A DNA stretch of 64,000 nucleotides, taken from an uncultured Bacillales bacterium (GTDB lineage: Bacteria; Bacillota_I; Bacilli_A; RF39; UBA660). A model generated the notes under the pieces. That model saw nothing but the letters and a program-made list of their open reading frames with translations. It ran no database searches and had not been told where the DNA came from. The position numbers were made by a program, and so were the translations under genes. Below are positions 7,127-56,358 of this stretch, in pieces. Position 1 is the stretch's first letter. Every line of letters begins with the position of its first letter. The DNA lies in assembly GCA_946539445.1 (NCBI GenBank), contig CAMNHK010000001.1, forward strand, positions 9,845 to 73,844. The letters are read 5' to 3'.

Positions 7127-7130
7127 AAGA

Positions 7131-33015: not shown

Positions 33016-33058
33016 ATAGTTATGATATAATCTATTGTATAGAATAGGAGTTGATATT

Positions 33059-34024
33059 GTGAATACGAACGAAACGAATAATCAAAATGTTCAACCAACA
33101 ATGTTTACACCACCTACAGGAGCTGCAGTCCCTGAGAATTCAGCACCTGTTTTAGATACGACTACTAATATTCCTGTTTTAGGAGAAACACAAACTTTGC
33201 CTGTAGTTAATGACGAAGTTCCGGTATTAGATACAACCGCCGCAATTCCTGTTGTTCCTACGGAAGCAGCACCAGTTCCTGAGAATACTGCTTCTATGGC
33301 ACCTGTTACGGCTGAGGTTCCTGTACTTGATTCTACTACTACGATTCCAGTAGTTCCTACTGCTATGGCGAATACACAGAATACAGCGCCTGTAGTTAGT
33401 AATCCTAATCCAGTTGGTGGAGATACTGGTGGTGTGGTTCCTGAAAATTTAAAAAGTGTGGAAATTAATTATAAACCACCAAGTAAATTTAAGACTTTTT
33501 TATTGATTGTGTTTTTTGTTTTCTTGATTGCTTTTGTTATCTTTTTACCTGAGATAACGACTATGATTAATTTATATAAAGCAGGAGATTTAAACTATAC
33601 TCCTGAAAAGATTACAACTGGTAAATTGAAATGTACGTTGGATACGAATACTACGAATTTAGATAAGTCTTATGATTTAACTTATAATTTTACGGATAAT
33701 AAATTGGAAAAAACAAGTTTTATTATTACGACACGTGGGGATGCTACATTAGATGAGGCAACATTAGATGAGTTAGCACAAACTTGTCAATCTCTAGCAA
33801 CGAATGTGGAATCTTTAGAAGGTATTACGGTTCAATGTAGTTATACGGATGGAAAATTAGTAGAAACGCAACACTTTGATTTGAAAAATATGAATGTTGA
33901 CGAAGTAGATGAAGCTTTTATTGAAGCTGGTGGTAATAATCCAGAGTATCAATATGGTCAAGATATGGATATTATTGAAAGATCTATGAATGCTTCTGGG
34001 TATACTTGCAAGAGAGAAGGTTAG
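33059..34024 (+). CDS. hypothetical membrane protein with Pro/Val/Thr-rich repeats
   Basis: Repeats of VP(V)LDTTT.IPVVP, then a TM helix and a C-terminal globular domain. Confidence 0.4.
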   Translation: MNTNETNNQNVQPTMFTPPTGAAVPENSAPVLDTTTNIPVLGETQTLPVVNDEVPVLDTTAAIPVVPTEAAPVPENTASMAPVTAEVPVLDSTTTIPVVPTAMANTQNTAPVVSNPNPVGGDTGGVVPENLKSVEINYKPPSKFKTFLLIVFFVFLIAFVIFLPEITTMINLYKAGDLNYTPEKITTGKLKCTLDTNTTNLDKSYDLTYNFTDNKLEKTSFIITTRGDATLDEATLDELAQTCQSLATNVESLEGITVQCSYTDGKLVETQHFDLKNMNVDEVDEAFIEAGGNNPEYQYGQDMDIIERSMNASGYTCKREG

Positions 34025-34084: not shown

Positions 34085-36241
34085 ATGAATGATGAAATTA
34101 TAAAGGAAATTGCCAATGATTTACAGATACGCGAAGAACAAGTTCGTACGGTTTTGAAATTATTAGAAGAAGATAATACCATTCCCTTTATTGCGCGATA
34201 TCGAAAAGAAGCAACGGGAGCTTTGGATGAAGAAGCCATTCGAAAGATTCAAGAAGTTTATTTATATCAAGAAAACTTGTTGAAGAGAAAAGAAGATGTT
34301 ATTCGTTTGATTGATGAAAAAGGAATGTTAACTGATGATATTCGTCAGTCTATTCTTGCTTGTAGTAAACTCGTTGAAGTAGAGGATATTTATCGCCCTT
34401 ATAAAGAAAAAAAGAAGACGAAGGCTACAGAAGCTATTGCTTTGGGATTGGAGCCACTTGCAAAAATGATGATGACTTTTCCTATGACAGGAGATATGGA
34501 GTCTCTATCCAAAAAATTTGTTCATGATAAAGTGGATACGATGGAAAAGGCGATTCAAGGAGCTTGTGATATTATAGCAGAGTGGATTAGTGATAATGCT
34601 TTTTATCGTAAATGGATTCGTGGTTATTTTTATCGAAATGGTATTGTGATGTCTAATCTTAAAAAGGGAGCCGAAGATAAAGAGGCTATTTACGAAATGT
34701 ATTATTCTTATCAAGAACCAGTTAAGTCTATTAAACCTCATCGTATTTTAGCTTTAAATCGTGGGGAAAAAGAAAAAGTATTAACGGTTTCCATTGATGT
34801 TAATAAAGATGAAATACTCGCATATTTGGAAAAGAAAGTTATTAAAAATGATAAGAGTTTTGTTACTTCTTATGTGAAAAAGGCAATAGAAGATTCTTAT
34901 AAAAGATTAATTGAGCCCTCTATTGAAAGAGAAATCCGTAGTGACTTAAGTGAAAAGGGAGAGGAAGCTGCCATTGAGAATTTTGGAAAAAATTTAGAGG
35001 CATTGCTACTGACTCCACCCATTAAGGAAAAAGTTGTACTCGCTTTTGATCCTGGATATGTTAATGGTTGTAAGATTGCTGTAGTGGATAAAAATGGAAA
35101 GTATTTAGATAGTACGGTTATTAAACCTTTTTTAAATAGTATCAGTGCCGATAAAATAAAAGCTTGCAAAGAAGAAATTGTTAAATTAATTCGTAAATAT
35201 CAAGTAGATATTATATCTATTGGAAATGGGACTGCTTCTCGGGAATCTGAAAAGTTCTGTGCTGAGATGATTGCGGAATACAAACTTCCTTGTAAGTATG
35301 TTATTGTTAGTGAAGCGGGAGCATCTATTTATTCTGCTTCTTTACAAGCTATTGAAGAGTTCCCAGATTTAGCAGTGGAAAAAAGAAGTGCTGTTAGTAT
35401 TGGTAGAAGAATTCAAGATCCTTTGGCAGAACTTGTTAAAATTCCTCCAGAGGGAATCGGAGTAGGACTTTATCAACATGATGTATCTCCTAAAAACTTG
35501 TCTAATTCTTTAGACTTTGTGGTTGAAAAATGTGTGAATAGTGTTGGTGTTAATGTAAATACTGCTTCCGCATCTTTATTAAGTTATGTATCTGGAATTG
35601 GAAAAACTGCCATTAAAAAGATTATTGATTATCGAGAAAGTGTTGGAAAGATTACTTCTCGTGAAGAGATAAAAAAGAAAAAGTTATTGACGGATAAAGC
35701 TTATGAACAAGCTATTGGATTTTTACGAATTCAAGGAGGAGATAATGTATTAGATTCTACCGCAATCCATCCAGAGAGTTATCCAATTGCTAATCAAATT
35801 TTAAAGGATTTAGGCGAGAATACTTCGAAAGTTGGTAGTGATGAAATTATTCAAAAATTGAATTCAATTTCTTTAGAAGAAGCTGCTAAAAAATATCAAA
35901 CGGATTTGTATACGTTACAAGATGTTGTGGAATCATTAAAAAAGCCTAATTTGGATCCAAGAGATGAATATCCACAGCCTATTTTAAAAAGTAACATACT
36001 TGATATCAAAGATTTACATATTGGAGATAAGTTACAAGGTACGGTTCGTAATGTTGTGGATTTTGGTTTATTTATTGATATTGGATTACATGATGATGGA
36101 CTTGCTCATATCTCTAAATTAAGTAAGAATTATGTAAAACATCCTTCAGACTTATTTAGTGTTGGAGATATTGTAGATTGTTACGTAGATGATATTTCTT
36201 TAGAAAAAAATAAAGTTAGTTTATCCTTAATCCCAAGATAA
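34085..36241 (+). CDS. tex: transcription accessory protein Tex (S1-domain)
   Basis: IPFIARYRKE N-terminal signature. YqgF and HhH regions. C-terminal S1 domain. GGAGGTG RBS. Confidence 0.9.
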   Translation: MNDEIIKEIANDLQIREEQVRTVLKLLEEDNTIPFIARYRKEATGALDEEAIRKIQEVYLYQENLLKRKEDVIRLIDEKGMLTDDIRQSILACSKLVEVEDIYRPYKEKKKTKATEAIALGLEPLAKMMMTFPMTGDMESLSKKFVHDKVDTMEKAIQGACDIIAEWISDNAFYRKWIRGYFYRNGIVMSNLKKGAEDKEAIYEMYYSYQEPVKSIKPHRILALNRGEKEKVLTVSIDVNKDEILAYLEKKVIKNDKSFVTSYVKKAIEDSYKRLIEPSIEREIRSDLSEKGEEAAIENFGKNLEALLLTPPIKEKVVLAFDPGYVNGCKIAVVDKNGKYLDSTVIKPFLNSISADKIKACKEEIVKLIRKYQVDIISIGNGTASRESEKFCAEMIAEYKLPCKYVIVSEAGASIYSASLQAIEEFPDLAVEKRSAVSIGRRIQDPLAELVKIPPEGIGVGLYQHDVSPKNLSNSLDFVVEKCVNSVGVNVNTASASLLSYVSGIGKTAIKKIIDYRESVGKITSREEIKKKKLLTDKAYEQAIGFLRIQGGDNVLDSTAIHPESYPIANQILKDLGENTSKVGSDEIIQKLNSISLEEAAKKYQTDLYTLQDVVESLKKPNLDPRDEYPQPILKSNILDIKDLHIGDKLQGTVRNVVDFGLFIDIGLHDDGLAHISKLSKNYVKHPSDLFSVGDIVDCYVDDISLEKNKVSLSLIPR

Positions 36242-36244
36242 TAG

Positions 36245-36266
36245 AGAATTGTCAATTGACAATTCT
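36245..36266. promoter_or_regulatory. 22-bp perfect palindrome (tex terminator and/or operator)
   Basis: AGAATTGTCAATTGACAATTCT lies immediately after the tex stop and about 60 nt upstream of the repeat-protein gene. It can form a 9-bp stem with an AATT loop, or be read as ATTGT-N6-ACAAT. Confidence 0.5.
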
Positions 36267-36328
36267 TTTCCTTTCATTCTCTTCTTTTGTTGATAAAAGA
36301 ACGGTATAATTATAGTAGGGTGTTTCGT

Positions 36329-38473
36329 ATGCAAAGAAAAAGACGTATCCTAAAAAGTAGAAGAAATAGAACAATGAATCTAATATTTTATAGTATATTA
36401 GGTCTTTTTGCATTTCTAGGAATTGGATATGCAACTCTTAGAACAACCTTAAATATTGGTGGTACAGTAACGGTTAAAAAATATACAGTTCCAGTGATAC
36501 AGCAAACTTCTTATTCTGATACTACCGCTTTTCGTAGTAGTACTTATAAAGAAAAAATAAAGATTATTAATTTAGATGATGAAATCAATCCACCAGCGAA
36601 TGTAATCGATAGCTGGGATGTAGGAGCGAATCAAAATGGAGATGTCATGGCATATATTACCGCCAATCAAGATGATAATACAAAGTATGATCTAACTATT
36701 CAAGGAGATGGATCATTATATGCTAATCCTAATAGCCAGTATCTCTTTGGCTTCTTAACTGGAGTAGATGCAATCAACAATATCGATGCTTTAAATACTT
36801 CTTTGGTTACTGATATGTCTTCTATGTTTGCTTATACAGGCCATAACAGTACAGTATTTACCCTAGATTTAGGAGATAAATTTGATACAAGTAATGTAAC
36901 AAATATGGGATCTATGTTTTACTGTACAGGATTTAGTAGTACAGTCTTCACCTTAGATTTAGGAGATAGATTTGATACGAGTAAAGTTACAAATATGTCT
37001 GATATGTTTTCTGAAATAGGCTATAATAGTACAGTCTTCACCTTAGATTTAGGAGATAAATTTGATACAAGTAATGTAAAAAATATGTCTGATATGTTTT
37101 ATTATACTGGTTATAAAAGTACAGTCATGACTTTAGATTTAGGAAGCTTATTTGATACCTCAAAAGTAACAGATATGTCTAGTATGTTTTTGTATACCGG
37201 CTATAGTAGCCCAGTATTTGAGCTAAATATAGGAGATAACTTTGATACTTCAAATGTAACGAAGATGGAGTATATGTTTTATAATACAGGCTATAAGAGT
37301 ACAGTATTTACCCTAGATTTAGGAGATAAATTTGATACAAGTAAAGTAACAAATATGTCACAAATGTTTGCTTATACAGGCTATAACAGTACAGTATTTA
37401 CCCTAGATTTAGGAGATAAATTTGATACAAGTAATGTAACAAATATGCAGTCTATGTTTTACTGTACAGGATTTAGTAGTACAGTATTTACCCTAGATTT
37501 AGGAGAACATTTTGACACCAGTCAAGTCGCAAATATGTCTTCTATGTTTAACTGTACAGGATTTAGTAGTACAGTATTTACCCTAGATTTAGGAGATCAA
37601 TTTGATACCTCCAATGTAACGAATATGTCTCATATGTTTGCTTCTACAGGATATAGTAGTACTATTTTTACTTTAAACTTAGGAGGGAAGTTTAATACAA
37701 GTAAAGTCACAAATATGTCTCAAATGTTTAGCCAAACAGGTTATACCAACACAGTATTTACCTTAGATTTAGGAGAACATTTTGACACCAGTCAAGTCGC
37801 AAATATGTCTTATATGTTTGCTTATACAGGCTATAACAGTACAGTATTTACCCTAGATTTAGGCGATTACTTTGATACAAGTAAAGTTACGGATATGTCT
37901 AGTATGTTTAGTAGTACGGGATATAAAAGTACCGTTTTCACATTAGATTTAGGGAATTTGTTTGATACGAGTCAAGTAACGAATATGTATAATATGTTTA
38001 GCCAAACAGGTTATACCAACACAGTATTTACCTTAGATTTAGGAGAACATTTTGACACCAGTCAAGTCGCAAATATGTCTTCTATGTTTAACCGTACAGG
38101 ATTTAGTAGTACAGTATTTACCCTAGATTTAGGAGATAAATTTGATACGAGTCAAGTAACAAAAATGGAAGCTATGTTTTACAGTACAGGCTATAGTAGT
38201 ACTGCCTTCACCTTAGATTTAGGAGATAAATTTGATACAAGTAAAGTAACAAATATGACTAATATGTTTAATAGTACGGGATATTCCAATAATACATTCA
38301 CACTGGATTTATCTACATTTGATTTTAGTGCAGTTACTTCCTATTCTAATATTTTTTACGACTGGAAAACTACTCAAAAAATCTATGTAAAAGATGCTAG
38401 TGATCAGAGTTGGATTTTAACACATAGTGGAAATAGAAATTTGACTACTGCAAACGTATTAATAAAAACTTAA
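36329..38473 (+). CDS. surface protein made of about 19 tandem 26-residue repeats (DUF285 / Listeria-Mycoplasma 26-residue repeat type)
   Basis: Signal-anchor N-terminus. Repeating unit FTLDLGDKFDTSNVTNMSxMFxxTGYxST is the DUF285 26-residue repeat signature, including the N-[VM]-T-[NDK]-M-S-x-M-F core. Confidence 0.7.
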   Translation: MQRKRRILKSRRNRTMNLIFYSILGLFAFLGIGYATLRTTLNIGGTVTVKKYTVPVIQQTSYSDTTAFRSSTYKEKIKIINLDDEINPPANVIDSWDVGANQNGDVMAYITANQDDNTKYDLTIQGDGSLYANPNSQYLFGFLTGVDAINNIDALNTSLVTDMSSMFAYTGHNSTVFTLDLGDKFDTSNVTNMGSMFYCTGFSSTVFTLDLGDRFDTSKVTNMSDMFSEIGYNSTVFTLDLGDKFDTSNVKNMSDMFYYTGYKSTVMTLDLGSLFDTSKVTDMSSMFLYTGYSSPVFELNIGDNFDTSNVTKMEYMFYNTGYKSTVFTLDLGDKFDTSKVTNMSQMFAYTGYNSTVFTLDLGDKFDTSNVTNMQSMFYCTGFSSTVFTLDLGEHFDTSQVANMSSMFNCTGFSSTVFTLDLGDQFDTSNVTNMSHMFASTGYSSTIFTLNLGGKFNTSKVTNMSQMFSQTGYTNTVFTLDLGEHFDTSQVANMSYMFAYTGYNSTVFTLDLGDYFDTSKVTDMSSMFSSTGYKSTVFTLDLGNLFDTSQVTNMYNMFSQTGYTNTVFTLDLGEHFDTSQVANMSSMFNRTGFSSTVFTLDLGDKFDTSQVTKMEAMFYSTGYSSTAFTLDLGDKFDTSKVTNMTNMFNSTGYSNNTFTLDLSTFDFSAVTSYSNIFYDWKTTQKIYVKDASDQSWILTHSGNRNLTTANVLIKT
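36780..38300 (+). repeat. tandem 78-bp coding repeats with blocks of near-identity
   Basis: Units such as ACAGTATTTACCCTAGATTTAGGAGATAAATTTGATACAAGTAA recur many times. Blocks of about 100 bp at about 37500 and about 38040 are almost identical. Confidence 0.75.
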
Positions 38474-38500
38474 AAGAACCAAATGATTGGTTCTTTTTTA
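38474..38500. terminator. bidirectional terminator
   Basis: AAGAACCAA-ATGAT-TGGTTCTT hairpin flanked by an A-run and a T-run. It sits between convergent stops. Confidence 0.65.
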
Positions 38501-39133
38501 GTAATGCAATATAATTTTCTTTCCTATGATTTCGATGAACCCATCTTCTTTTAGATATTTGATTTCTCTTGCCATTGCACTTCTATCAACGGATAAGTAA
38601 TTTGCTAGTTCTGTATAAGAAGTATTCATTTTAATGGTTTTGGATCCATCTTTTGTTTTCTTCTCTATATATTTGAAATAAGAGAGTAGTTTGTCTCTTG
38701 TAGTCTTTTTTGTGAGTAGTTCAATTCTTATATTTCTAGTATTTAATTGTTCTGTTAGGATTTTGATTAGGTTTTTAATAAAGATGATGTAGAAATCATT
38801 TTTAAAGATTTCATCATTGGTGATTTGATTATATTCAATGAATGTGATTTCTGTATCTTCTTTTGTGATACAGGAGATTCCTTCTTCTTGAATGGAGGAG
38901 GTTAAGGATCCAAATACTTCTCCTGTTTCTAATTCTTCTATGACGGTTTTACTTCCTGCATAATCTGTATAGATACATTCAATACTACCAGAATCAATTA
39001 AAGCAATGAAATCTTCTCGGTTTACATTTGACAAGACGTTTACATTTCGTTTAAATTTTTGAGTACTTGCCTTTAGAATTTTCTTTAATTTCAACAATTC
39101 TTTTTCAGAAATATTTTCAAATAATTTTATCAT
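38498..39133 (-). CDS. Crp/Fnr-family transcriptional regulator (cNMP-binding domain plus C-terminal HTH, no Fnr Cys cluster)
   Basis: GGTGAT RBS before ATG at 39133. C-terminal T..ELA..L..SR..V.R.L HTH typical of the Crp family. Beta-roll region upstream. Confidence 0.75.
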   Translation of the reverse strand: MIKLFENISEKELLKLKKILKASTQKFKRNVNVLSNVNREDFIALIDSGSIECIYTDYAGSKTVIEELETGEVFGSLTSSIQEEGISCITKEDTEITFIEYNQITNDEIFKNDFYIIFIKNLIKILTEQLNTRNIRIELLTKKTTRDKLLSYFKYIEKKTKDGSKTIKMNTSYTELANYLSVDRSAMAREIKYLKEDGFIEIIGKKIILHY

Positions 39134-39160
39134 TTTTATCACCTTAAAAAAAATTATAGC

Positions 39161-39182
39161 AAAAAATGTAAAGTGTTGCAAA
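39161..39182. promoter_or_regulatory. 22-bp Crp-like palindromic operator candidate in the divergent regulator/nrdD promoter region
   Basis: AAGTGTTGCAAATGCAACACTT has TGTTG-N6-CAACA arms. This is the same 5-6-5 geometry and 22-bp length as Crp/Fnr sites. Confidence 0.45.
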
Positions 39183-39250
39183 TGCAACACTTTGTTTTGC
39201 TTTTTTATGATATGATGATTTTATAAAAAATAAGAAAGAGGTCAAAGGTT

Positions 39251-41440
39251 ATGAAGGTTATCAAGAGAGATGGTCATGCGGTCGAATACATGCCATCTAA
39301 AATCGAAGATGCCATCGAAAAAGCAAACTTGGAAGTGGAAGAAGAAGATAGGGCTTCTTCAACACAGATTAAAAATATTATCAAGTATATTGAACAGTTA
39401 GGAAAAAAGAGAATCCTTGTAGAAGATATACAAGATATTATTGAAATGAAATTAATGAGTATTGGAAAGTTTGCTTTGGCAAAACATTATATTACGTATC
39501 GCTATCGTAGGGAACTAGTGAGACGTAGTAATACGACAGATCAATCAATTAGGGAGTTGATTGATGGTGGTAGTGAATACTGGAATACAGAGAATTCCCA
39601 TAAAGATGCGAAAGTAGTGACAACACAAAGAGACTATTTAGCGGGAATTACAAGTACGGATATTACGAAGAGATTTTTACTTCCTGAGGATATTGTGGAA
39701 GCTCATGAAGCAGGAATTATCCATTTTCATGATGCGGATTATTATGCACAAAATGCATTACATAATTGTGATTTGATTAATCTAGAAGATATGCTTCAAA
39801 ATGGAACGAATATGAATGGTGTGATGATTGAAAAGCCTCATCGCTTTTTAACGGCGATGTCTATTGCGACTCAAATTATTACGGCTGTTACTTCTTCTCA
39901 ATATGGAGGAGCAACGATTACTCTTACTCATTTAGCTCCTTTTGTGAAAAGTAGTAGAGAGTACTATGAGAAAAAATATAAAGCTAGAAAATTATCCAAA
40001 GAACAAATTGAAAAGTTTGTAGAAGAAGATTTAAAAAAAGAAATTACGGATGGAGTTCAAACGTTCCAATATCAAATTAATTCTTTAACCAATACGAATG
40101 GACAAGTTCCTTTCTTAAGTGTCAATATGTATTTAGGAGAGACAGATGAATATAAAGAAGAACTTGCGATGATTATTGAAGAAGTCTTAAAACAAAGAAT
40201 TGAAGGAATGAAAAATGAAAAAGGAGTTTGGATTACTCCAGCATTTCCTAAACTTTTATATGTGTTAGAAGAAGATAATGTACGTCCAAAGAGTAAGTAT
40301 TATTATCTTACAAAATTAGCGGCGAAATGTACGGCGAAAAGAATGGTACCTGACTATATTTCTGAAAAAGTGATGAAAGAGTTAAAGAAAAATGAATTGG
40401 GAGAAGGGGATTGTTATCCATGTATGGGTTGTCGATCTTTCTTAACACCTGACAGAACCATTTCTCTTGGAAATATGGCAAAGGCAAAGAACTATGTTCC
40501 GGGTAAGGGAAAATATTATGGAAGATTTAATCAAGGGGTTGTTACTTTAAATCTTGTAGATGTTGCGTTAAGTAGTCATCAGGATATGGATGAATTTTGG
40601 AAGATATTGGATGATCGTTTAGAGATTTGTCATCGTGCTCTACAATGTCGTCATAAGAGATTATCAAGAGTTACAAGTGATGTTGCGCCTATTTTGTGGC
40701 AACATGGAGCTCTTGCTCGATTAGAAAAGGGAGAGTCTATTCATGAATTGTTGCATCATGGATATTCTACGATTTCTCTTGGGTATGCTGGTCTTTATGA
40801 ATGTGTGAAATATATGACAGGACATTCTCATACAGATAATGGGGAAGGAAAAGAATTTGGATTATCTGTTATGCAAAAGTTAAATGATGCTTGCAAAGTT
40901 TGGAAAGAAGCAGAAGACATTGATTATTCTGTTTATGGAACTCCTATTGAATCAACGACCTATAAGTTTGCACAAGCTTTAAGAGATCGTTTTGGAGTGA
41001 TTAAGGGAATTACTGATCGAGATTATATTACGAATAGTTATCATGTTCCTGTTTTTGAAGAAATTGATGCTTTTACAAAATTAAAGTTAGAAAGTGAGTT
41101 TCAAAGACTTTCTCCAGGAGGAGCTATTTCTTATATTGAAACCGCTGATTTGAATCATAATATAGATTCTGTATTAGAAGTAATTCATTTTATTTATGAT
41201 AATATCATGTATGCAGAATTAAATACAAAGTCTGATTATTGTCAAGCATGTGGATTTGATGGAGAAATCTTAATTGATGATAATTTGGAATGGTATTGTC
41301 CAAATTGTGGAAATCGAGATCAAACGAAAATGAATGTAGCTCGTCGTACTTGTGGTTATATCGGAAATAATTTCTGGAATCGTGGTAGAACCCAAGAAAT
41401 CAAAGAGAGAGTGATTCATTTGGATAATAAGGATTTATAA
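39251..41440 (+). CDS. nrdD: anaerobic ribonucleoside-triphosphate reductase
   Basis: ATP-cone N-terminus. C-terminal CxxC..CxxC zinc site. Glycyl-radical motif RRTCGYIG. Confidence 0.92.
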   Translation: MKVIKRDGHAVEYMPSKIEDAIEKANLEVEEEDRASSTQIKNIIKYIEQLGKKRILVEDIQDIIEMKLMSIGKFALAKHYITYRYRRELVRRSNTTDQSIRELIDGGSEYWNTENSHKDAKVVTTQRDYLAGITSTDITKRFLLPEDIVEAHEAGIIHFHDADYYAQNALHNCDLINLEDMLQNGTNMNGVMIEKPHRFLTAMSIATQIITAVTSSQYGGATITLTHLAPFVKSSREYYEKKYKARKLSKEQIEKFVEEDLKKEITDGVQTFQYQINSLTNTNGQVPFLSVNMYLGETDEYKEELAMIIEEVLKQRIEGMKNEKGVWITPAFPKLLYVLEEDNVRPKSKYYYLTKLAAKCTAKRMVPDYISEKVMKELKKNELGEGDCYPCMGCRSFLTPDRTISLGNMAKAKNYVPGKGKYYGRFNQGVVTLNLVDVALSSHQDMDEFWKILDDRLEICHRALQCRHKRLSRVTSDVAPILWQHGALARLEKGESIHELLHHGYSTISLGYAGLYECVKYMTGHSHTDNGEGKEFGLSVMQKLNDACKVWKEAEDIDYSVYGTPIESTTYKFAQALRDRFGVIKGITDRDYITNSYHVPVFEEIDAFTKLKLESEFQRLSPGGAISYIETADLNHNIDSVLEVIHFIYDNIMYAELNTKSDYCQACGFDGEILIDDNLEWYCPNCGNRDQTKMNVARRTCGYIGNNFWNRGRTQEIKERVIHLDNKDL

Positions 41441-42985: not shown

Positions 42986-43047
42986 TTTTGGAAATTTACA
43001 AATGAATAATTCTTTGTTAAAATTAAATAATAGAGGTGGTATGTGAA

Positions 43048-46000
43048 ATGATAAAGGCTAGAAAAAAAATTTTTGTACTTGTTATATTTGCTTTCATTGC
43101 GGCAATTTCTGTTTTTGGAATACTGAAATTAAAAAATTATTATAGTTCTTCTATCGGACAGAATAACAAGGAATATCGTTATGAAGATAGTTATGTAGAC
43201 TATGTTTCAGAAATTGATTATAGTACTTTAGATGAAGGTACGGTTTATGTTAATAAAAAAGTAGAAGTAGAGGATGAAACCCCTGAAGATATTTTCTTTA
43301 TTACATTATCAAGTTATGCTCCTTATTTGACTTCTCAAGATTCTTATGTAACAGAAGATATTTTGTTTGAAGATGTGCTTGGCGATTTTGTTTCTTTTTC
43401 TTATATTGTTAGTCTAGATGATAATGGAACTATCTATAGTGAGGCTAATGAAGAACAAATTAGCGGAGGTTCTCGCTATACTTGGGATGCTTTCCCTGGA
43501 ATGTATGTAGAAACTGTTTCAGACGATTCTGATATCGTTACCGTTAAATGGTTTATTCCTCAAGAATTAACGACTCATCATTTTGATTTGAAATATTCTG
43601 CTACTGTTAATGGTTCTGATTATTGGGAAGATCTTCCTTATGTAAATGATTATACTCGTACTGGAATGTATCAGTCTAATAATTCTTGTATTGCTACCTA
43701 TAATCTAACAAATGCTAGTTATTATCAAGCTATCAGCGAAGAAAAAGAAGAATTGGATCAAAATGTTTTTTGGGAACACAATGAAACTGGATTAGAACAA
43801 AATAAATACGCTCGTCGTTCTTCGATTGATGGAAATCAAGTAACAGTAGAACTTGGAAATGTTGGACGTTTCTATTATTATGGTGGATTTACCGTTACGA
43901 CGATTTATGAAGGGGTAGATCCAGATGAATATCCTGAATATACAGAGGAATTTCGATATGGAGATTCTTACTGTGCATATGAGCCTGATACTTTGGATCC
44001 AACTAGTTTAATTAGTGCTTATAATGATGCTACTGATAGTGATGATCCTTGTGGTGTAATTGATGGGTCCGATGTAACTGTTACATTATCTTATGAAGAT
44101 ACAGCAAAACCAATTAACTATACTGTTTATTATTATTCAGACGTTAACATTTTAGATTTCTATACGGATACTACAACAGAAAGAGAAGTTTGTCCTACTA
44201 TTAAAAATTTTGATGGTTATCGATATACTGGAACGGATACTTGTTTCCCTATTAGTGAAACTAGTTACGAAATCTATTTGCCTTATGAGAAAATTGCAAG
44301 TTACACTGTAACGACTCACTATGTTGATCTTAATAACAATCAGGAATTTAGTACACCTAAAGTAGATACATACAATGATGGTGATGAGTATTATACCGTT
44401 ATCGCTGAATTTGCTGGTTATGAATATGATTCTGATTCTGGAAATACTTATGGAACAGTTCATGAAAATATTGATGTTTATTATTACTATTACTCTACTG
44501 GTGGAAGTAGTGTCTCTTCTATTTCTTTTATGTATAAGGATTTAGATGGAAATACAATTAAGCCTTTAACTAGTGTTACGGTTGATAAGGGGTCTCAGTA
44601 TTGTGTAGGTTCTGCACCTACTATTACCGGGTATGAATATGTTTCAACGACTTTTCCAGATAATCAAGAATGTTTTAATGTTGAAGGAGATGCATATTTA
44701 GTTATTTACAATTATCGATTAAATAAAGTTACTTTCACTTTTAATTATTATGCACATAGTGATCAAGGTGATGGTGATGAAGTGATTCATATTCCTACTT
44801 CGAAGGAATACAATGTTGGTTATGCTTACAATATTACACCATTAGAAATTGAAAACTATACATTTGATACTTCTTCAGAGCCTCTTCAAGGAACTGTTAC
44901 AAGTAATTTAGAGATAAATTTATATTATGTACCTAAGGTAGCTAATTATACAGTTCGAGTTTCTTATTTAGGAGAAGATCGAGATCAAACATATACAGGT
45001 ACTCTTAATTATGGAGATAATTATGATTTCAGTATTTATCAAGATACTTCTTCTGATTATTCTCTATATAGTACAGAGGGTGATTCTGTTTCTGGTGTTG
45101 TTAATCAAGATACTTATGAAGTTACTTTCTATTATATGAGGCGTCAAGTAACATTAACAAATCATTTTGTTGATACTAGTTATCAAGAGGTTGCTACTTC
45201 TACAACTGCCATTGCTAATTATGGAACAAATATCAATGATTATATATTAACGGGGGATAGTATACCATCTATTGAAGGATATACTTATTTAAGAACAGAG
45301 CATGATGGTGGCGATACAGTAGATAGTAGTAATACCGGAATTTGGTATATTTATCAAATGAAGAGTTCTACTATTACGGTTCATTATGTGACGGAAGATG
45401 GTCAAACGATTCAAGAAGATTCTAGTTATACAAAGAATTATTTTGATACTTATAGTGTAGAGCCTCCAACTATTTTTGGTTATCTATATAAAGAAGTTAG
45501 AGGAGATGCCACTTCTGCTACGATTAATAAAGATTCTTATGATATTACGTTTGTATATCAAGTAAAACCAGCTACTTTGACCGTTCATCATTATTCTAAT
45601 GATGGAAATGATACTAAAGTTGCAAGTGACGAAGTATTTGATTTACATTATTTTGATACATATCAAACTTCTGCTGTTGATACTACGAATTTAGATTATG
45701 AGTTTGATCGTGTTTCTGGAGATCCTGTTAATGGAACGATGGAAAAAGATAGTGTTGAAGTTACTTATTATTATGCTATTAAACGTGGAACCGTAAAGAC
45801 TTACCATTATTTATATGATAATGGAGAAACTACTACTACGGTTGCTCCTATGGTTAGTAACACTTACGATTATGGAACTAATTATACAACCGAGTCTTCT
45901 AGTGAGGCTTTGGTAGAATATGATTTCTATTCTCGTAGTACGAATTATGTAGGAGTTGTTCGTGAGCCTGTTATTGAAGTATATTATTACTATCAAGTAA

Positions 46001-46992
46001 AAAGTAGTGGTTTAACCACTAGTGTTAGTCAAACTGCCACTGAGAAAATAACCAGTTTAGATACTCCAGTATCTTATGAAATTACGTATGATGCTGCTAT
46101 TGAAAACTATACAGGAGATGCTACTATTACTCTTGTAGATACTCTTCCATATGCTATTAATGTTTCAGAATCTAATTTAGATGGTGGAACTTACAATGAA
46201 AGTGATCGTACGATTACTTGGACCGTTAATTGGAATGGTATTGATGGTAGTGGTTCTAAGAAAATTACTAAAAACTTAACCATGGCTTATTTAGAGATTT
46301 CTCCTTATGAAAGGGTTATGGTTAATGAAGTAAAAGGTAAGATTGTTACCGATGAGGATCAACGTGAAGTCGTTAATCAAACTTCTACTGCTATTGAAAT
46401 TAAAGGAAAGATTTTGGTTCATTTCTTAGAGGTAGATACGAATCGTGAATTATCTGCTACGGTTGAACATGAAGATTTAGTAGGAGAAAGATATGTAGTA
46501 ACTCCTGCTGATATTCCAGGATTTGAAGTAGTGGAAGGTCCTGATACAGAAGAATATGTAGTTGAGATGGATGTCCAAGAAATCACTTATTACTACGATG
46601 TTCGTCATTTAAAGATTCAAACTATTGTTAATGGCAATGGTGGAACTGTTGAAGGAGACGAAACCGTTTTATGGGGTGAAGATTCTACCGATGACAAGAT
46701 TGTTGTTAAGGCAGATGAAGGATATGTTATTCAAAGTATTGTTATTAATGGTACAAATTTGAATATTCCACTTAACCAAACAGAATATACGATTGATGCT
46801 TTCAAAGAAATGATGGAAGATAAAGTAATTGAAGTTACTTTCCATAAGGGATTAATTGTTAATCCAGAAACATCCAATCCATTTACAAGATTATGGCTTG
46901 CTCTTATCCCTGCTTTAATAGCATTCGGAGTTTATAAGAAAGATTCTTTAAAGAAAATTTATCGTCGTGTAAGTCATTCTATTAGTAAATAA
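43048..46992 (+). CDS. very large surface adhesin with MucBP-like repeats and a DUF11-like domain. Putative non-canonical C-terminal sorting signal.
   Basis: Signal anchor. At least 8 modules ending in the Y.VT.YY(V/M) beta-strand signature typical of MucBP. TITLVDTLPY...DRTITWTV resembles the DUF11 conserved repeat. C-terminus NPETS plus a hydrophobic stretch plus a KK.RR tail. Confidence 0.6.
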   Translation: MIKARKKIFVLVIFAFIAAISVFGILKLKNYYSSSIGQNNKEYRYEDSYVDYVSEIDYSTLDEGTVYVNKKVEVEDETPEDIFFITLSSYAPYLTSQDSYVTEDILFEDVLGDFVSFSYIVSLDDNGTIYSEANEEQISGGSRYTWDAFPGMYVETVSDDSDIVTVKWFIPQELTTHHFDLKYSATVNGSDYWEDLPYVNDYTRTGMYQSNNSCIATYNLTNASYYQAISEEKEELDQNVFWEHNETGLEQNKYARRSSIDGNQVTVELGNVGRFYYYGGFTVTTIYEGVDPDEYPEYTEEFRYGDSYCAYEPDTLDPTSLISAYNDATDSDDPCGVIDGSDVTVTLSYEDTAKPINYTVYYYSDVNILDFYTDTTTEREVCPTIKNFDGYRYTGTDTCFPISETSYEIYLPYEKIASYTVTTHYVDLNNNQEFSTPKVDTYNDGDEYYTVIAEFAGYEYDSDSGNTYGTVHENIDVYYYYYSTGGSSVSSISFMYKDLDGNTIKPLTSVTVDKGSQYCVGSAPTITGYEYVSTTFPDNQECFNVEGDAYLVIYNYRLNKVTFTFNYYAHSDQGDGDEVIHIPTSKEYNVGYAYNITPLEIENYTFDTSSEPLQGTVTSNLEINLYYVPKVANYTVRVSYLGEDRDQTYTGTLNYGDNYDFSIYQDTSSDYSLYSTEGDSVSGVVNQDTYEVTFYYMRRQVTLTNHFVDTSYQEVATSTTAIANYGTNINDYILTGDSIPSIEGYTYLRTEHDGGDTVDSSNTGIWYIYQMKSSTITVHYVTEDGQTIQEDSSYTKNYFDTYSVEPPTIFGYLYKEVRGDATSATINKDSYDITFVYQVKPATLTVHHYSNDGNDTKVASDEVFDLHYFDTYQTSAVDTTNLDYEFDRVSGDPVNGTMEKDSVEVTYYYAIKRGTVKTYHYLYDNGETTTTVAPMVSNTYDYGTNYTTESSSEALVEYDFYSRSTNYVGVVREPVIEVYYYYQVKSSGLTTSVSQTATEKITSLDTPVSYEITYDAAIENYTGDATITLVDTLPYAINVSESNLDGGTYNESDRTITWTVNWNGIDGSGSKKITKNLTMAYLEISPYERVMVNEVKGKIVTDEDQREVVNQTSTAIEIKGKILVHFLEVDTNRELSATVEHEDLVGERYVVTPADIPGFEVVEGPDTEEYVVEMDVQEITYYYDVRHLKIQTIVNGNGGTVEGDETVLWGEDSTDDKIVVKADEGYVIQSIVINGTNLNIPLNQTEYTIDAFKEMMEDKVIEVTFHKGLIVNPETSNPFTRLWLALIPALIAFGVYKKDSLKKIYRRVSHSISK

Positions 46993-47087
46993 AAGTCAGT
47001 GCTAGTGCATTGACTTTTTCTTTTTATTTGCATTTTTTTCTAAAATATGATATAATTAAGCCCAGTTAAAAAAGAGGGGGTTATATT

Positions 47088-48374
47088 ATGAGTAATAAAT
47101 GGAAAGCTGGATTATTAGCAGGTGTCATTGCAGGTTCTGTTATGATTGTAGGTTGTCATTCTAAAAATAAAGATGATGTTGTTTTACCTACTGAGGAGGC
47201 TACTATTACAGAAGTATCCAATGAGCATCTTACTACGGCTTTTGTTTTTTCAGAAGATGGAGAAACTTATTTAGGAGAAATGGAAGTAAATCCTAATATT
47301 TATGATATTTTGTTTTCGCATGGATATTCTTTAGTGGATAATCCTGATATTTCTAGAGAAACTTTAGATTCTTATCAATTTGAAGAATTTCAAAATTCTA
47401 TCGGAGTAACTTCTACTGATGTTAACTTCCGTAATGGACCTAGTACGGATTATGATATTATGGATTCTTTTTATCCAAATACTCCAATTTCATTGGTTGC
47501 TAGATGTGAAAATGGTTGGTATTTAGTAGCAAAAGAGGGTCGTTTAGGCTTTATTCGTGGAGATTATATTGATCAAGTTAGTGAAGAGAATTTGACCACT
47601 CAATTGAGTCAATTATCGGAGGTTGTTCCGGTTGTTTGTGCGATTACGAACGTTAATGTCCGTCCAGATCCAAGTACTACTTATACGGAGTATGGAACTT
47701 TACCTTGTGGTAGTTACTTAGAAATGCTTGAAAGATTAGACAATGGTTGGTATAAAGTTCGTTATGAAGATAAAATTGGTTACGTATGTGGAGATTATGT
47801 ACGTGAACAATGTGCTTTTTCTGGAGAAAATTTACCAATCGTAACAATGCATACAAATGCTAATTTATATTCTTCTCCTTATGGGGATAAAATTGGATCT
47901 ATTCCTACTTATGAAATTGCTCGTGTTGGTGGAGAAGTAGGTGGATATTATTATGTGGAAAGTAATGGACAAATAGGATTCGTGGAAAAAGGAGATTGTA
48001 CTACTCTTCAAGGAGTTTATGTTATAGTAGATATCAGTGAACAGAAAGTTACTTTATACCAAAATGGAGAAGTCTTATTAGTAACAGATGTTGTAACAGG
48101 AAAAGATTCCACCCCAACGGATTTAGGATTATTTAGTTTACAAGCGAAAACAGAAGATACTTACTTAACTGGTGAGGATTATTCGGTTCATGTAAATTAC
48201 TGGATGCCATATAATGGTGGAGAAGGATTGCATGATGCTACTTGGAGAAGTTCCTTTGGAGGACAAATCTATCATAATAGTGGAAGTCATGGATGTGATA
48301 ACTTACCATTAGATGCTGCTCGTACTATCTATGAAAATATTGAAGTAGGAGATAAAGTTTTAGTTAAAAATTAA
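47088..48374 (+). CDS. lipoprotein with three SH3b-like domains and a C-terminal L,D-transpeptidase (YkuD) domain
   Basis: Lipobox IVGC. Three repeats of a VNFR.GPST/VRPDPST...GWY.V pattern. C-terminal HNSGSHGCDN motif characteristic of the Ldt active site. Confidence 0.7.
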   Translation: MSNKWKAGLLAGVIAGSVMIVGCHSKNKDDVVLPTEEATITEVSNEHLTTAFVFSEDGETYLGEMEVNPNIYDILFSHGYSLVDNPDISRETLDSYQFEEFQNSIGVTSTDVNFRNGPSTDYDIMDSFYPNTPISLVARCENGWYLVAKEGRLGFIRGDYIDQVSEENLTTQLSQLSEVVPVVCAITNVNVRPDPSTTYTEYGTLPCGSYLEMLERLDNGWYKVRYEDKIGYVCGDYVREQCAFSGENLPIVTMHTNANLYSSPYGDKIGSIPTYEIARVGGEVGGYYYVESNGQIGFVEKGDCTTLQGVYVIVDISEQKVTLYQNGEVLLVTDVVTGKDSTPTDLGLFSLQAKTEDTYLTGEDYSVHVNYWMPYNGGEGLHDATWRSSFGGQIYHNSGSHGCDNLPLDAARTIYENIEVGDKVLVKN

Positions 48375-48378
48375 TTTA

Positions 48379-48408
48379 GAATAGCAAATGCTATTCTTTT
48401 TTTTTGTT
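48379..48408 (+). terminator. rho-independent terminator
   Basis: AGAATAGCA-AAT-GCTATTCT hairpin plus T-run. Confidence 0.7.
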
Positions 48409-48471
48409 GTTTTGTCGAATGGGTGGAAAGACTTTTTGGTTTGAGGTATTCTTGTTTTGGAAAGGAGGAAT

Positions 48472-49083
48472 ATGGAAGAACTCTTAAACTATGAGGGCTT
48501 GGTGTATCATATCATTACGAAGTATTCTCATCATTATGACCGAGAGGATTTGTATCAAGTTGGTATGATAGGACTTATGGATGCATATCGACATTATAAA
48601 AAGGACTTTTCTACTAAGTTTTCTACTTTTGCTTATTATTATATTGTCGGTGAAATTCATAAATATATTCGAGAAAGTAGTAGTTTAAAAGTGGGTAGAG
48701 ATATTGTTGAATTAAAGAAGAAATTATTAAAAGCAAAAGAAGTTATGGCTCAAAGATTAGGACGAGAACCTACTAACTTAGAATTATCTCTTTTTCTAGA
48801 TATTGAGGAAAAAGAAGTAGATATGGCTCTACTGGCAACGGAAGAAGTGCATCCGTTGGAAGAAGTAGAAGAATTTTATCAAACATTTGATGATACGAGT
48901 CCTGAAATTTTAGATTTGAAATTAGAACTTGATAAATTGCCTAAAGAAGAAAAAGAATTAATTCAAGCTCGTTATTTTGAGGATCTAACCCAAAAAGAGG
49001 TTTCCTCTCGTATGGGAATCAGTCAAGTACAGGTTTCTAGACAAGAAAGTAAAATATTACAAAAATTAAGAAGTCGTTTATAA
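48472..49083 (+). CDS. group-3 sporulation-type sigma factor (SigF/SigG family)
   Basis: AAGGAGGAAT RBS. Region 2 (YQVGMIGLMDAYRHY). Region 4 ends in GISQVQVSRQESKIL, near-identical to the SigF/SigG/SigB ISQVQVSRLEKKIL signature. Only 204 aa. Immediately upstream of spoVA genes. Confidence 0.7.
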   Translation: MEELLNYEGLVYHIITKYSHHYDREDLYQVGMIGLMDAYRHYKKDFSTKFSTFAYYYIVGEIHKYIRESSSLKVGRDIVELKKKLLKAKEVMAQRLGREPTNLELSLFLDIEEKEVDMALLATEEVHPLEEVEEFYQTFDDTSPEILDLKLELDKLPKEEKELIQARYFEDLTQKEVSSRMGISQVQVSRQESKILQKLRSRL

Positions 49084-49128
49084 GGTATTATTTTTCTTTT
49101 TTGGTTCAAATTAATCATAGGTGATACT

Positions 49129-49572
49129 ATGAGAGATTCTTTTTATGAGGAAATTGCGGATTTACATAAAGCCAGGGAAAATAAAATAAAAAATGCTTTT
49201 TTATCTTTTCTTTGTGGTGGTGTTCTAGGATTATTGGGAGAGGGAATTGTGGAAATTCTTGTTTCATTCTTTTCTTTATCTAGGGAGGATGGACTTGTAT
49301 GGATGCTGATATTATTCATTTTTTTGGCTAGTTTTCTTACTTCTCTTGGTATATTTGATCGAATGGTTACTATTTTTCGTTGTGGCTTGTTAATTCCTAT
49401 AACTGGTTTTGCTCATTCTATGACTAGTTGTTGTTTGGATACCAAGACGGAAGGACTCATTTATGGAATGGGGTCCAATGCCTTTAAGTTAGCGGGGACG
49501 GTTTTATTTTATGGAGTTAGTTCCGCTTTTCTATTAGGAGCCGTTCGGTATTTGATTGAGGTGATTGCATGA
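49129..49572 (+). CDS. spoVAC: stage V sporulation protein AC
   Basis: 147-aa 4-TM protein of the SpoVAC/SpoVAEb fold. First gene of a C-D-Eb triad. Confidence 0.7.
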   Translation: MRDSFYEEIADLHKARENKIKNAFLSFLCGGVLGLLGEGIVEILVSFFSLSREDGLVWMLILFIFLASFLTSLGIFDRMVTIFRCGLLIPITGFAHSMTSCCLDTKTEGLIYGMGSNAFKLAGTVLFYGVSSAFLLGAVRYLIEVIA

Positions 49573-50564
49573 CCATCCATTATCAAAATGTGTATCTACA
49601 GGATACGGCTTGTGTATGTGGCCCTTATGAAAAAAAAGGTCCACTTGGAAAGTACTTTGATAAGACATATTCTGATTTTTATTGCGGAGAATCTTCTTTT
49701 GAAAAAGCAGAAGTAAAAATGGTAAAAGATTCGATTCAATGTTTACTTAAAAAAAGTTCTCTTGCGAAGGAAGATATTGATTTGGTAGTAGGAGGAGATT
49801 TGCTCAATCAAATAACAGCGACTACTTATGGGAGTTATGGAGTTGGACAAGGTTTTGTAGGAATTTATGGTGCTTGTAGTAGTAGTGTTTTGGGATTAAT
49901 CCTTGGTTCTACTTTTATTGAAAATGGTTTTGCATCGAATGTGATTGGAGTTGTTTCTTCTCATAATTTAACCAGTGAAAAACAATTTCGTTATCCTATT
50001 GAATATGGAGCCCCTAGACCGAACAGTGCTACTTTTACAGCAACGGGGGCTGCTAGTTGTTTGTTAACTTCTCAAAAATCTAGTATTCGAATGGAATGTG
50101 CAACCATTGGAAGAAGTATTGATTATGGTCAGAATGATTCCAATGATATGGGTCGTGTAATGGCTCCCGCTGCTATTGATACTCTAACTCGTCACTTTCA
50201 AGAGACGGGTAGAGGTGTGGAAGACTATGATTGGATTCTAACTGGGGACCTAGGTGTTTATGGAAAAGAAATTGTGAAAGAATATCTATTAAAAAAATAT
50301 TCTATTGATTTAGAGAAAAAGTATGATGATTGCGGTGTTTTGCTTTACGATTTAGAAAAACAGAAGGAAGTAAAAGCAGGTGGTAGTGGTCCAGCTTGTA
50401 GTCCATTAGTTGTTTATTCTTATTTTGTTTCTCAATTAAGAAAAAAGAAAATTAAAAGAATTTTGTTTTTAGCGACAGGTGCTTTATTTTCTCCTTTATT
50501 TTTATATCAAAAAGAAAATATTCTTTCCATTTGTCATGCTGTTAGTTTGGAGGTGGTCGATTGA
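49569..50564 (+). CDS. spoVAD: stage V sporulation protein AD
   Basis: Thiolase-like fold. VGGDLLNQ and GIYGACSS motifs match SpoVAD. Confidence 0.8.
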   Translation: MTIHYQNVYLQDTACVCGPYEKKGPLGKYFDKTYSDFYCGESSFEKAEVKMVKDSIQCLLKKSSLAKEDIDLVVGGDLLNQITATTYGSYGVGQGFVGIYGACSSSVLGLILGSTFIENGFASNVIGVVSSHNLTSEKQFRYPIEYGAPRPNSATFTATGAASCLLTSQKSSIRMECATIGRSIDYGQNDSNDMGRVMAPAAIDTLTRHFQETGRGVEDYDWILTGDLGVYGKEIVKEYLLKKYSIDLEKKYDDCGVLLYDLEKQKEVKAGGSGPACSPLVVYSYFVSQLRKKKIKRILFLATGALFSPLFLYQKENILSICHAVSLEVVD

Positions 50565-50911
50565 AACTGATTTATTCCTTTTTATTTTGTGGGATGATAT
50601 GTATGATTAGTCAAATTGTTTTAGATCACTCTAAATTATCTCCAGGACATATTACTTCTATTTTAGTGGTTTTGGGAGCTTTTATGGACCTTTTTCATTG
50701 GTATGATACCCTTATTAAGGTCGTTGGAGCTGGCGCTTCTTTACCTATTTGTAGTTTTGGTCATTCTTTGATACATGCTACTTTAAAGAGTGCCCAGGCA
50801 AATGGATTTTTAGGTTTATTTACTGGGATGTTTGATTTAACATCTGGTGGTATTGTGGCAACTATTCTTTTTTCTTTTCTTTTTTCTCTCCTTTTTCATG
50901 CGAGAGATTAA
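50561..50911 (+). CDS. spoVAE: stage V sporulation protein AEb
   Basis: 116-aa membrane protein, paralogous in composition to the upstream SpoVAC-like gene. Conserved position after spoVAD. Confidence 0.7.
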   Translation: MKLIYSFLFCGMICMISQIVLDHSKLSPGHITSILVVLGAFMDLFHWYDTLIKVVGAGASLPICSFGHSLIHATLKSAQANGFLGLFTGMFDLTSGGIVATILFSFLFSLLFHARD

Positions 50912-50914
50912 AAA

Positions 50915-50950
50915 AACTTTCCACTGTTTTTGTGGAAAGTTTATTTTTGT
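50915..50950. terminator. bidirectional terminator
   Basis: AAACTTTCCAC-TGTTTTT-GTGGAAAGTTT hairpin between convergent genes. Confidence 0.7.
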
Positions 50951-51243: not shown

Positions 51244-51329
51244 AGTATCACCACCTTCATTATAGCTTATTTTTGACAAAAATGGAATTATGTAGTATAA
51301 TATAGCCAAATTTTGAGGGGGATTTTAAA

Positions 51330-55321: not shown

Positions 55322-55338
55322 AAGAAGGAGTTTTAAGT

Positions 55339-56343: not shown

Positions 56344-56358
56344 TAAAATGATTGATAA

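Follow-up and report, generated by a model that had tools for sequence, protein, structure and literature searches.

What drives variation in a long tandem-repeat protein gene of an uncultured gut bacterium: rapid slippage between near-identical repeats, or slower changes to whole units and whole alleles? The question is raised by a gene at 36329-38473 of a 64,000-nt stretch of DNA (the window; contig CAMNHK010000001.1, positions 9,845 to 73,844) from an uncultured Bacillales bacterium, the host being an uncultured low-GC gut or rumen Bacilli lineage. An earlier sequence-only reading described the product as a surface protein built from near-identical repeats that readily expand and contract. 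The gene probably encodes an exported scaffold of the DUF285/PARCEL family, of a 30-residue type, that has been diversified by recombination over strain-to-species time, with no fast switch. The variation seen consists mainly of whole-allele divergence or replacement and of presence or absence, on an evolutionary time scale.

What is the gene, and how is its array built? The open reading frame (ORF) is intact, with an ATG at 36329, a stop codon at 38471-38473 and 714 codons between them, and the public gene call on the source contig (ENA ERZ28612970 scaffold_450, identical to the window) is the same gene. Its composition is native, with 31.0% GC versus 31.5% and GC at third codon positions resembling that of its neighbors. 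The product matches Pfam DUF285 (PF03382) in eight stretches at 349.4 bits (cutoff 25; E 5.2e-106) and TIGR02167, “PARCEL repeat-containing surface protein,” at 178.6 bits (cutoff 30). The coordinates and the family are as first described, and the protein begins with a putative export leader. The in-frame tandem array is long, far beyond chance: Tandem Repeats Finder (TRF) reports a single array at 36813-38284 with a period of 90 bp, 16.4 copies, 75% matches and a score of 1282. The sequence-only reading had given about 19 units of 26 residues (78 bp). The period is instead 30 residues, or 90 bp, according to TRF, the register of the units and a unit hidden Markov model (HMM), which finds 18 matches with all 17 spacings exactly 30 residues; the figure of 26 is the name of the TIGR02167 model and not a property of the window sequence. 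There are 16 full units and two degenerate caps rather than 19 units, although the total length of about 490 amino acids was right. The unit consensus is FTLDLGDKFDTSKVTNMSyMFyyTGYsSTV. Nine to ten positions are invariant (L3, G6, F9, T11, S12, V14, M17, M20, F21, G25), and eight are hypervariable (7, 8, 13, 18, 19, 22, 23 and 27), with 1.6-2.6 bits of entropy against a cutoff of >1.5.

How similar are the units to one another? Compared pairwise, the 16 units have a mean DNA identity of 75.2% (range 63-98) and a protein identity of 70%. Most are 63%-88% identical at the DNA level, and only two of the 120 pairs reach ≥90% (units 1 and 7, 95%; units 8 and 14, 97.8%). The median synonymous divergence (dS) among units is 0.69 and the nonsynonymous divergence (dN) 0.23 by the Nei-Gojobori method. 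The units are old copies kept by purifying selection. The description of the units as near-identical is thus right locally, for patches of 50-88 nt, and wrong for the array as a whole. The duplicated blocks of about 100 bp that had been pointed out near 37500 and 38040 are real, and they and the longest exact repeats are listed in Table 1; further exact repeats measure 59 nt (37494 = 38034) and 50 nt. All exact repeats of 50-88 nt in the array are in frame, with every offset a multiple of 90. The identical patches cross unit boundaries and do not correspond to whole units, forming a patchy mosaic that looks like conversion or duplication rather than clean recent amplification. A higher-order repeat of 270 bp was also considered and rejected, since its 76% matches in TRF are no better than the 75% of the 90-bp period; the offsets of three and six units arise from a few patchy identical blocks, not from a regular superrepeat.

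How does the locus vary among relatives? A scan for NrdD in species-representative genomes yielded 80 loci in metagenome-assembled genomes (MAGs) of gut and rumen “Bacilli bacterium” lineages, with NrdD identities of 82%-97%; three further loci (L085, L087 and L088), which are related and probably not conspecific, came from a Joint Genome Institute metagenome scan with the convergent Crp/Fnr-type regulator gene that follows the DUF285 gene. In 72 of the 80, the regulator adjoins nrdD; about 30 loci, mostly from the closer relatives, have tex no more than about 10 kb upstream. Among related MAGs, the interval from tex to the regulator is a highly variable island. It lacks a DUF285 gene in L006, L009, L012, L014, L015 and others: it is empty in L015, holds a small phosphoesterase gene alone in L006 and L009, and carries unrelated membrane proteins in L012, L014 and L018. 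There is one DUF285 gene in L010, there are two in tandem in L007 and L011, and in L020 the interval holds a sipW/tasA-like cluster and a DUF285 gene with a 26-residue period. The tandem genes (L007 2-3332; L011 1-3907) are of the 30-residue type, with the first of each pair truncated where the contig ends. The L020 region (2537-8737 of roe deer rumen MAG contig JAFVEF010000006.1) encodes a 710-aa protein, two TasA-like proteins, a SipW-like signal peptidase and a 232-aa membrane protein, and its DUF285 protein combines a true 26-residue period with a GLGYAYLRTDLSIVG leader.

Orthologues of the window gene have the N-terminal cap domain and the C-terminal tail in common and differ in unit number. 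A comparison of repeat counts across relatives, proposed in the sequence-only reading, gave 13 to 25 units at the same locus: 13 in L085 and L010, 13-14 in L087, 16 in the window, 18-19 in L011, 21 in L007 and 24-25 in L088. The cap domain is 82%-87% identical at the DNA level to those of L085 and L088, and the degenerate last unit is 91% identical to that of L085 and 57% to those of L088 and L003, a contig described below. Within the window array, unit identity (75.2%) is about the same as that between the window and L085 arrays (76.1%), with the N-terminal domains of the two about 85% identical. A unit-by-unit search for orthology between these two arrays gave no diagonal signal, and the best matches (73%-88%) were scattered. 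One unit pair within the L085 array is 100% identical. The array interior turns over faster than the ends, without array-wide homogenization.

Could the array nevertheless be a hypermutable, contingency-like locus, in which mispairing of slipped strands, or frequent unequal recombination among near-identical units, makes repeat number heterogeneous within populations? There are features that would suit such a locus: exact in-frame repeats of 50-88 nt, two unit pairs at 95%-98% identity, the range of 13 to 25 units among orthologues and the frequent breaking of assemblies within such arrays. However, 118 of the 120 unit pairs are below 90% identity, the median unit dS is 0.69, and array-wide homogenization is absent, within-array and between-array identity being about equal. 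Further evidence comes from two independent samples. L003 (ENA ERZ12302821), a 3.2-kb contig with a coverage of 2.9, carries the same 25-unit allele as L088, which derives from another metagenome (AUXO); the two are 99.9% identical, differing across 2,517 nt by 3 substitutions and no indel, and this collinearity argues against rapid slippage. The exact 714-aa product of the window is likewise present on two contigs. The alpha C/Rib proteins of group B Streptococcus and the Vlp/Vsa proteins of Mycoplasma are also exported, with long in-frame tandem coding repeats whose length recombination can alter. Their repeats are essentially identical in DNA, and their length varies within lineages, whereas the window units average 75% identity and one allele is stable across two samples. 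A contingency locus is therefore unlikely. The earlier description of the array as recombination-prone stands insofar as the array is capable of recombination through its exact in-frame repeats and has undergone it; fast slipped-strand size variation does not.

If not by slippage, how do alleles come to differ? The identities of the sequences that flank and make up the gene are phylogenetically incongruent. In L003, the regulator gene, the intergenic region and the upstream sequence are 100% identical to the window over 742 nt and the C-terminal tail is 96.6% identical, with only 57%-74% identity across the array and a gene of at least 827 aa. In L088, the last 113 nt of tex are 99% identical to the window, and the tail and terminator (38384-38506) are 97.6% identical, next to 66%-68% for the upstream intergenic region and leader, 57%-74% for the array and 72%-80% for the regulator. 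L005, the closer genome, has the opposite pattern, with DNA identities of 94%-98% for the regulator, 91%-94% for nrdD, 77% for the tail and 58% for the terminator. The incongruence is therefore seen even without L003. The occurrence of the 25-unit allele beside window-like flanks indicates, as far as sequence comparison goes, allele replacement by recombination. The hairpins that bracket the gene are kept in L085 and L088 (the left one with two substitutions, the right one at 100%) and may offer homology for a swap of the whole gene. A further contig, L105, comes from the same AUXO source as L088; across 12,280 nt, beginning 90 nt upstream of nrdD, it matches the window at 99.85% identity. Positions 1-29 of L105 equal the end of L088, an exact 29-mer (window 39161-39189) within a conserved hairpin at 39168-39195 between the regulator and nrdD. 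This overlap could be an assembly-graph branch point from strain variants, although it is not proof of one.

Together, these observations suggest a mechanism with several parts. The protein would serve as a cell-surface or secreted binding scaffold, adhesin-like in character, with a binding specificity that depends on the coil number and on which residues occupy the variable loop positions. Its array would be altered by occasional in-frame duplication, deletion or conversion of units between patches of exact identity, and whole alleles would be gained, lost, tandemly duplicated or replaced via homologous recombination in the conserved ends. Diversification would then occur on strain-to-species time scales rather than by a high-frequency slipped-strand switch.

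Several points weigh against this account. First, an adhesin role is suggested by family analogy only. Second, the protein may not stay on the surface after maturation but be released, because it has no lipobox, LPXTG motif or recognized wall-binding domain. Third, individual duplication and deletion events are not reconstructable, because unit identity within and between arrays is equal. Fourth, L003 could have arisen by natural recombination or by a chimeric assembly; a chimera is possible because of the 2.9x coverage and because the switch between parents falls inside an 83-nt stretch (window 38424-38506) that is identical in the window, L003 and L088. Fifth, L088 may belong to a species other than that of the window. 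Finally, every sequence used for comparison was assembled from short metagenomic reads, and many arrays lie at contig ends (L005, L007, L011 and the truncated matches P0121-P0127). The last of these were found in a homologue search with the non-repeat N-terminal domain, which gave seven matches (P0121-P0127), mostly truncated. Exact-protein look-ups for same-species alleles, using the products of the DUF285 gene, tex, the regulator gene, nrdD and nrdG, returned the source contig, L003 and L105 only, and a cluster look-up for further same-species alleles found none.

Table 1. Features of the DUF285 gene and its borders (window coordinates).
Feature	Position	Strand	Basis
Palindromic terminator-like hairpin after tex, left bracket of the gene	36243-36268	.	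Terminator scan
Perfect TATAAT, 19 nt before the start codon, possible -10	36305-36310	+	Sequence reading
AGGGTG, possible ribosome-binding site	36316-36321	+	Sequence reading
DUF285/PARCEL repeat protein, coding sequence, 714 aa + stop	36329-38473	+	ORF; PF03382 (E 5.2e-106); TIGR02167 (178.6 bits)
Leader, aa 1-35: basic n-region (QRKRRILKSRRNR), hydrophobic helix (NLIFYSILGLFAFLGIG), then GYA, with TLRTTLNIGG after it	36329-36433	+	Sequence; AlphaFold2
Non-repeat N-terminal cap domain, aa 36-146, mostly beta	36434-36766	+	AlphaFold2, pLDDT >90 from residue 51
Degenerate first unit (N-cap unit), 48%-64% identical to core units	36767-36856	+	Identity matrix; partial HMM match
Exact 65-nt repeat, offset 540	36843-36907 = 37383-37447	+	Exact-repeat scan
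Sixteen full 90-bp/30-residue units	36857-38296	+	TRF; register; identities; AlphaFold2
120-nt block pair, 97.5% identical, offset 540 (6 units)	37481-37600 vs 38021-38140	+	Exact-repeat scan
Exact 88-nt repeat, offset 270 (3 units), spanning the unit 10/11 and 13/14 junctions	37724-37811 = 37994-38081	+	Exact-repeat scan
Degenerate last unit (C-cap, FTLDLSTFDFSAVTSYSNIF...)	38297-38386	+	Register; identity matrix; unit HMM
Conserved C-terminal tail (…QKIYVKDASDQSWILTHSGNRNLTTANVLIKT) + stop	38387-38473	+	Sequence; AlphaFold2 helix 690-699
Bidirectional terminator hairpin, common to the convergent Crp/Fnr-type gene, right bracket	38472-38497	.	Terminator scan
Convergent Crp/Fnr-family regulator gene, 211 aa, right edge of the variable interval	38498-39133	-	Pfam HTH_Crp_2/cNMP_binding; synteny

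How is the gene delimited and expressed? That it is a monocistronic unit between two conserved terminator hairpins is partly shown. A promoter scan ahead of the gene found no full two-hexamer site; the TATAAT is a possible -10 element, judged by its sequence and lacking a good -35. A search of 36000-39400 against Rfam gave zero matches at E≤1. The mechanically called ORF of the regulator (38498-39190, minus strand) has a GTG start and 230 aa, while the public call and conservation in relatives favor the internal ATG at 39133 and a product of 211 aa.

What would the protein look like, and where would it go? An AlphaFold2 model built on an alignment of 56 sequences has a mean predicted local distance difference test (pLDDT) score of 89.5 and a predicted template modeling (pTM) score of 0.73. 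It comprises a helix at residues 2-39, a low-confidence linker at 38-49, the beta cap domain, a solenoid and a C-terminal helix at 690-699. The solenoid has one 5-residue strand (VFTLD) per 30 residues, at 176-180, 206-210 and so on to 626-630, and the model confidently predicts a fold like that of right-handed leucine-rich repeat (LRR) proteins, with caps at both ends. Strand residues are invariant and hypervariable positions sit in loops when unit entropy is placed on the model. A Foldseek search of the PDB gave meaningful matches that are all LRR proteins (TLR8, Nogo receptor, LRG1 and InlP) and all weak, the best being TLR8 (E 6.5e-4); TM-scores were 0.15-0.16 when normalized to the query and up to 0.32 on the shorter Nogo-receptor targets. 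A phmmer search of PDB sequences found no match. At the N-terminus, the leader (MQRKRR…LGIGYATL) has a hydrophobic core of 17-19 residues and no Cys, and therefore no lipobox; neither the leader nor the cap domain was matched by a family model. From these features we infer that the protein is exported, with a leader that might be cut after Ala35 or retained as an anchor. The C-terminus (…NRNLTTANVLIKT) has no LPXTG motif, hydrophobic stretch or basic tail. Anchoring as a lipoprotein or through LPXTG was ruled out, as both signals are absent. The comparison with Mycoplasma- and Listeria-type surface proteins made in the sequence-only reading is thus apt for the family and fails for the anchor, the protein not being a lipoprotein like the prototypes.

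A different destination is suggested by the end of the leader. The protein, neither membrane-anchored nor simply released, could be cut behind GYA by a SipW-like peptidase and then built into, or attached to, an extracellular fibre of the TasA/camelysin type, with the conserved, strand-prone TLRTTLNIGGTVTV acting as the linking strand. At its end (…LGIGYA-TLRTTLNIGGTVTV) the leader is similar to the leader of the TasA-like protein encoded at 55339-56343 (…TSTYA-WFTANTTVTVN), and residues 38-49 are disordered in the monomer model. The product of 59166-60413 is a weak candidate for a peptidase of the S24/S26 type (Pfam E 2.9e-4) and is 27% identical to the SipW-like ORF of L020, a locus where a DUF285 gene whose leader is of this type directly adjoins the sipW/tasA-like cluster. 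Homologous arrays also occur behind prepilin-type and SipW-type leaders. However, the window leader is matched by no family model, the peptidase match is under the Pfam cutoff (20.9 versus 23.3 bits), the peptidase lies 21 kb from the DUF285 gene, and GYA also fits an ordinary type I signal peptidase site. Attachment to a fibre is distinctly unlikely. It is similarly doubtful that the 30-residue DUF285 solenoids of this Bacilli lineage are passenger modules on extracellular fibres instead of the membrane, with three interchangeable leader types (GYAxLxxxLxIxG as in the window protein, prepilin GFTLIE and SipW/TasA), a donor or linking strand freed by the SipW-like peptidase encoded 21 kb downstream, and a cassette that is swapped between strains. 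Were fibre display true, the terminator-bracketed gene would be exchanged as a cassette, altering what the fibre binds.

Very unlikely is the proposal that the allelic variation is an artefact of short-read assembly, with chimeric joins and collapsed or expanded arrays, and that the gene is a stable, vertically inherited core gene: the switch of parent in L003 within 83 nt common to both parents at 2.9x, the break of L088 and L105 at a common 29-mer in a conserved hairpin and the many related genes cut at contig ends would fit it, but whole genes that differ in unit number lie within longer contigs assembled by independent projects (L085, L087, L088 and L010, the last of these on a contig of 172 kb), contiguous sequence shows the gene present, absent or tandemly duplicated between the conserved tex and regulator genes, the identity of L003 to L088 is 99.9%, and the longest exact repeat of the window array, at 88 nt, is shorter than typical reads.

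The scaffold favored here, an exported 30-residue DUF285 protein diversified by recombination, can be compared with known families. PARCELs were defined by a 25-residue motif with amphipathic periodicity, variable-number arrays and membrane-targeting leaders (Röske et al. 2010, PMC2996958), and also by DNA dyad symmetry and links to mobile elements (PMC2996958). How far does the window gene conform? First, it has the periodic conserved hydrophobic scaffold with hypervariable polar positions, and its tandem unit number varies among related ORFs (13 to 25 at the same locus). Second, the canonical PARCEL/TIGR02167 length of 25-26 residues is not found; the period is exactly 30, as in most close homologues. 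Third, DNA dyad symmetry was not detected in the array: no inverted repeat is as long as 40 nt; two inverted 9-mer matches occur, versus a control mean of 32; and the dyad score of the consensus unit is no better than that of codon shuffles, 60% of which reach it, the palindrome mode of MEME (the method of the 2010 paper) not having been run. A single opposite-strand ORF of ≥60 aa overlaps the gene (60 aa, 36252-36434, over the 5′ end), with none in the array, and PARCEL-style palindromy with antisense coding was accordingly rejected for the array. Fourth, the adjacent genes include no transposase, integrase or phage gene, and phage homologues are distant (<40% identity); on the other side, presence is patchy and identity mosaic among relatives. 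An origin from a phage or other mobile element was not favored, given that phage homologues are only distant, composition is native and the neighbors include no mobile genes.

The window gene has much in common with other DUF285/PARCEL proteins, such as LppQ/LppC of Mycoplasma mycoides and the Drp family of M. agalactiae: the core motif [WF]DTSxVTxMxxMF followed by a hydrophobic return segment, variable-number tandem arrays with a hydrophobic scaffold and hypervariable polar positions, membrane-targeting leaders and a place in strain-variable genome regions (PMC2996958, PMC2824730). In mycoplasmas, such proteins are expressed as surface lipoproteins that differ between strains, and they are encoded in the parts of the genome that vary most (PMC2996958, PMC2824730). 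In contrast, the window protein has a period of 30 rather than 25 residues and no detectable DNA dyad symmetry, is not a lipoprotein and has no mobile elements beside its gene; moreover, a beta-strand solenoid is predicted here, whereas an amphipathic helical array was proposed in 2010. Its match to NF045896 (the Mbov_0838 family, a Mycoplasma lipoprotein) is far below cutoff (82.7 versus 500 bits). With the 26-residue-repeat TIGR02167 proteins of Listeria and other Firmicutes it has the LDLSxFDTSxVTxMxxMF core in common, at an HMM score far above cutoff. The model aligns to it only piecewise, because each unit is four residues longer. Compared with the true 26-residue paralogue in L020, there is one additional residue after the strand (LDLG-DK-FDTS) and there are three in the return loop (xxTGYxSTVFT versus xxxxxLxT). 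The classical LRR surface proteins (internalins such as InlP, TLR ectodomains and the Nogo receptor) and the BspA-type TpLRR proteins are alike in having one short parallel strand per repeat and caps. Classical LRRs vary on the strand face, whereas in the window protein the strand face (a T, D ladder) is invariant and variability lies in the loops. BspA/TpLRR proteins belong to a different Pfam family, LRR_5.

The 30-residue type is common. There are 4,798 homologues at E≤1e-10, and those with names are called “BspA family leucine-rich repeat surface protein” and come from Bacilli MAGs. Motif spacings in the best 120 of the 4,798 comprise 642 of 30 residues and 6 of 26. The same 30-residue arrays occur with different leaders among homologues P0001-P0120: GYAxLxxxLxIxG in 39 of 120, prepilin-type GFTLIELL (PF07963) in 16 of 120, a SYAYWQ type in about 18 and camelysin/SipW-like leaders (PF12389) in a few. 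Some of these homologues have additional domains, namely VWA and the Listeria-Bacteroides repeat. The sole functionally tested Firmicute example found here is AJ89_07570 of Lactococcus lactis IBB477, an adhesin with DUF285, MucBP and Big_3 domains that resembles the window protein in its DUF285 region; its deletion lowers adhesion to mucin and polystyrene (PMC5071367). AJ89_07570 is multi-domain and cell-wall-associated, unlike the window protein, which consists of a DUF285 array and caps with no wall anchor.

What are the implications? DUF285/PARCEL arrays are already known as variable-number surface repeats, and little is added in principle. First, the 30-residue subtype dominates gut and rumen Bacilli MAGs and is left uncovered by descriptions of the family as having 25 or 26 residues; the family has no solved structure. 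Second, the predicted LRR-like strand solenoid would depart from the amphipathic helical array proposed when PARCELs were defined. Third, the interval from tex to crp/nrdD provides a syntenic site for studying surface-protein diversification in uncultured gut Bacilli with small genomes. Diversification at this site involves gain, loss, duplication, unit-number change and allele replacement, and could matter for strain tracking and host interaction.

The neighborhood contains other genes of possible relevance to the cell surface. The gene at 43036-46992 (plus strand), 4.5 kb downstream of the DUF285 gene, has a product of 1,318 aa that contains four MucBP domains (E 1e-29) and is a putative second large adhesin; the gene is also present on L105, where the DNA is 99.85% identical to the window. 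Upstream of tex, the gene at 33035-34024 (plus strand) encodes 329 aa with a repetitive N-terminal half rich in Pro, Thr and Val (…VPVLDTT…IPVVPTE…), one transmembrane segment and a weak DUF1307 match that is under the cutoff (E 2.3e-4). A TasA/camelysin-like cluster occupies 54620-60413 (plus strand). It includes a 334-aa protein (55339-56343) with a leader like those of SipW cognates (…TSTYAWFTANTTVTVN), whose motif is similar to the end of the DUF285 leader, and a 415-aa protein (59166-60413) with a weak Peptidase_S24/S26 match. Window positions 47000-51500 and L105 encode SpoVAC/SpoVAD/SpoVAEB, a sporulation-type sigma factor, a PASTA kinase and a YkuD L,D-transpeptidase; the host is therefore a walled, probably spore-forming Firmicute. 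Related MAGs are variously labeled Mollicutes, Tenericutes or Mycoplasma in public records.

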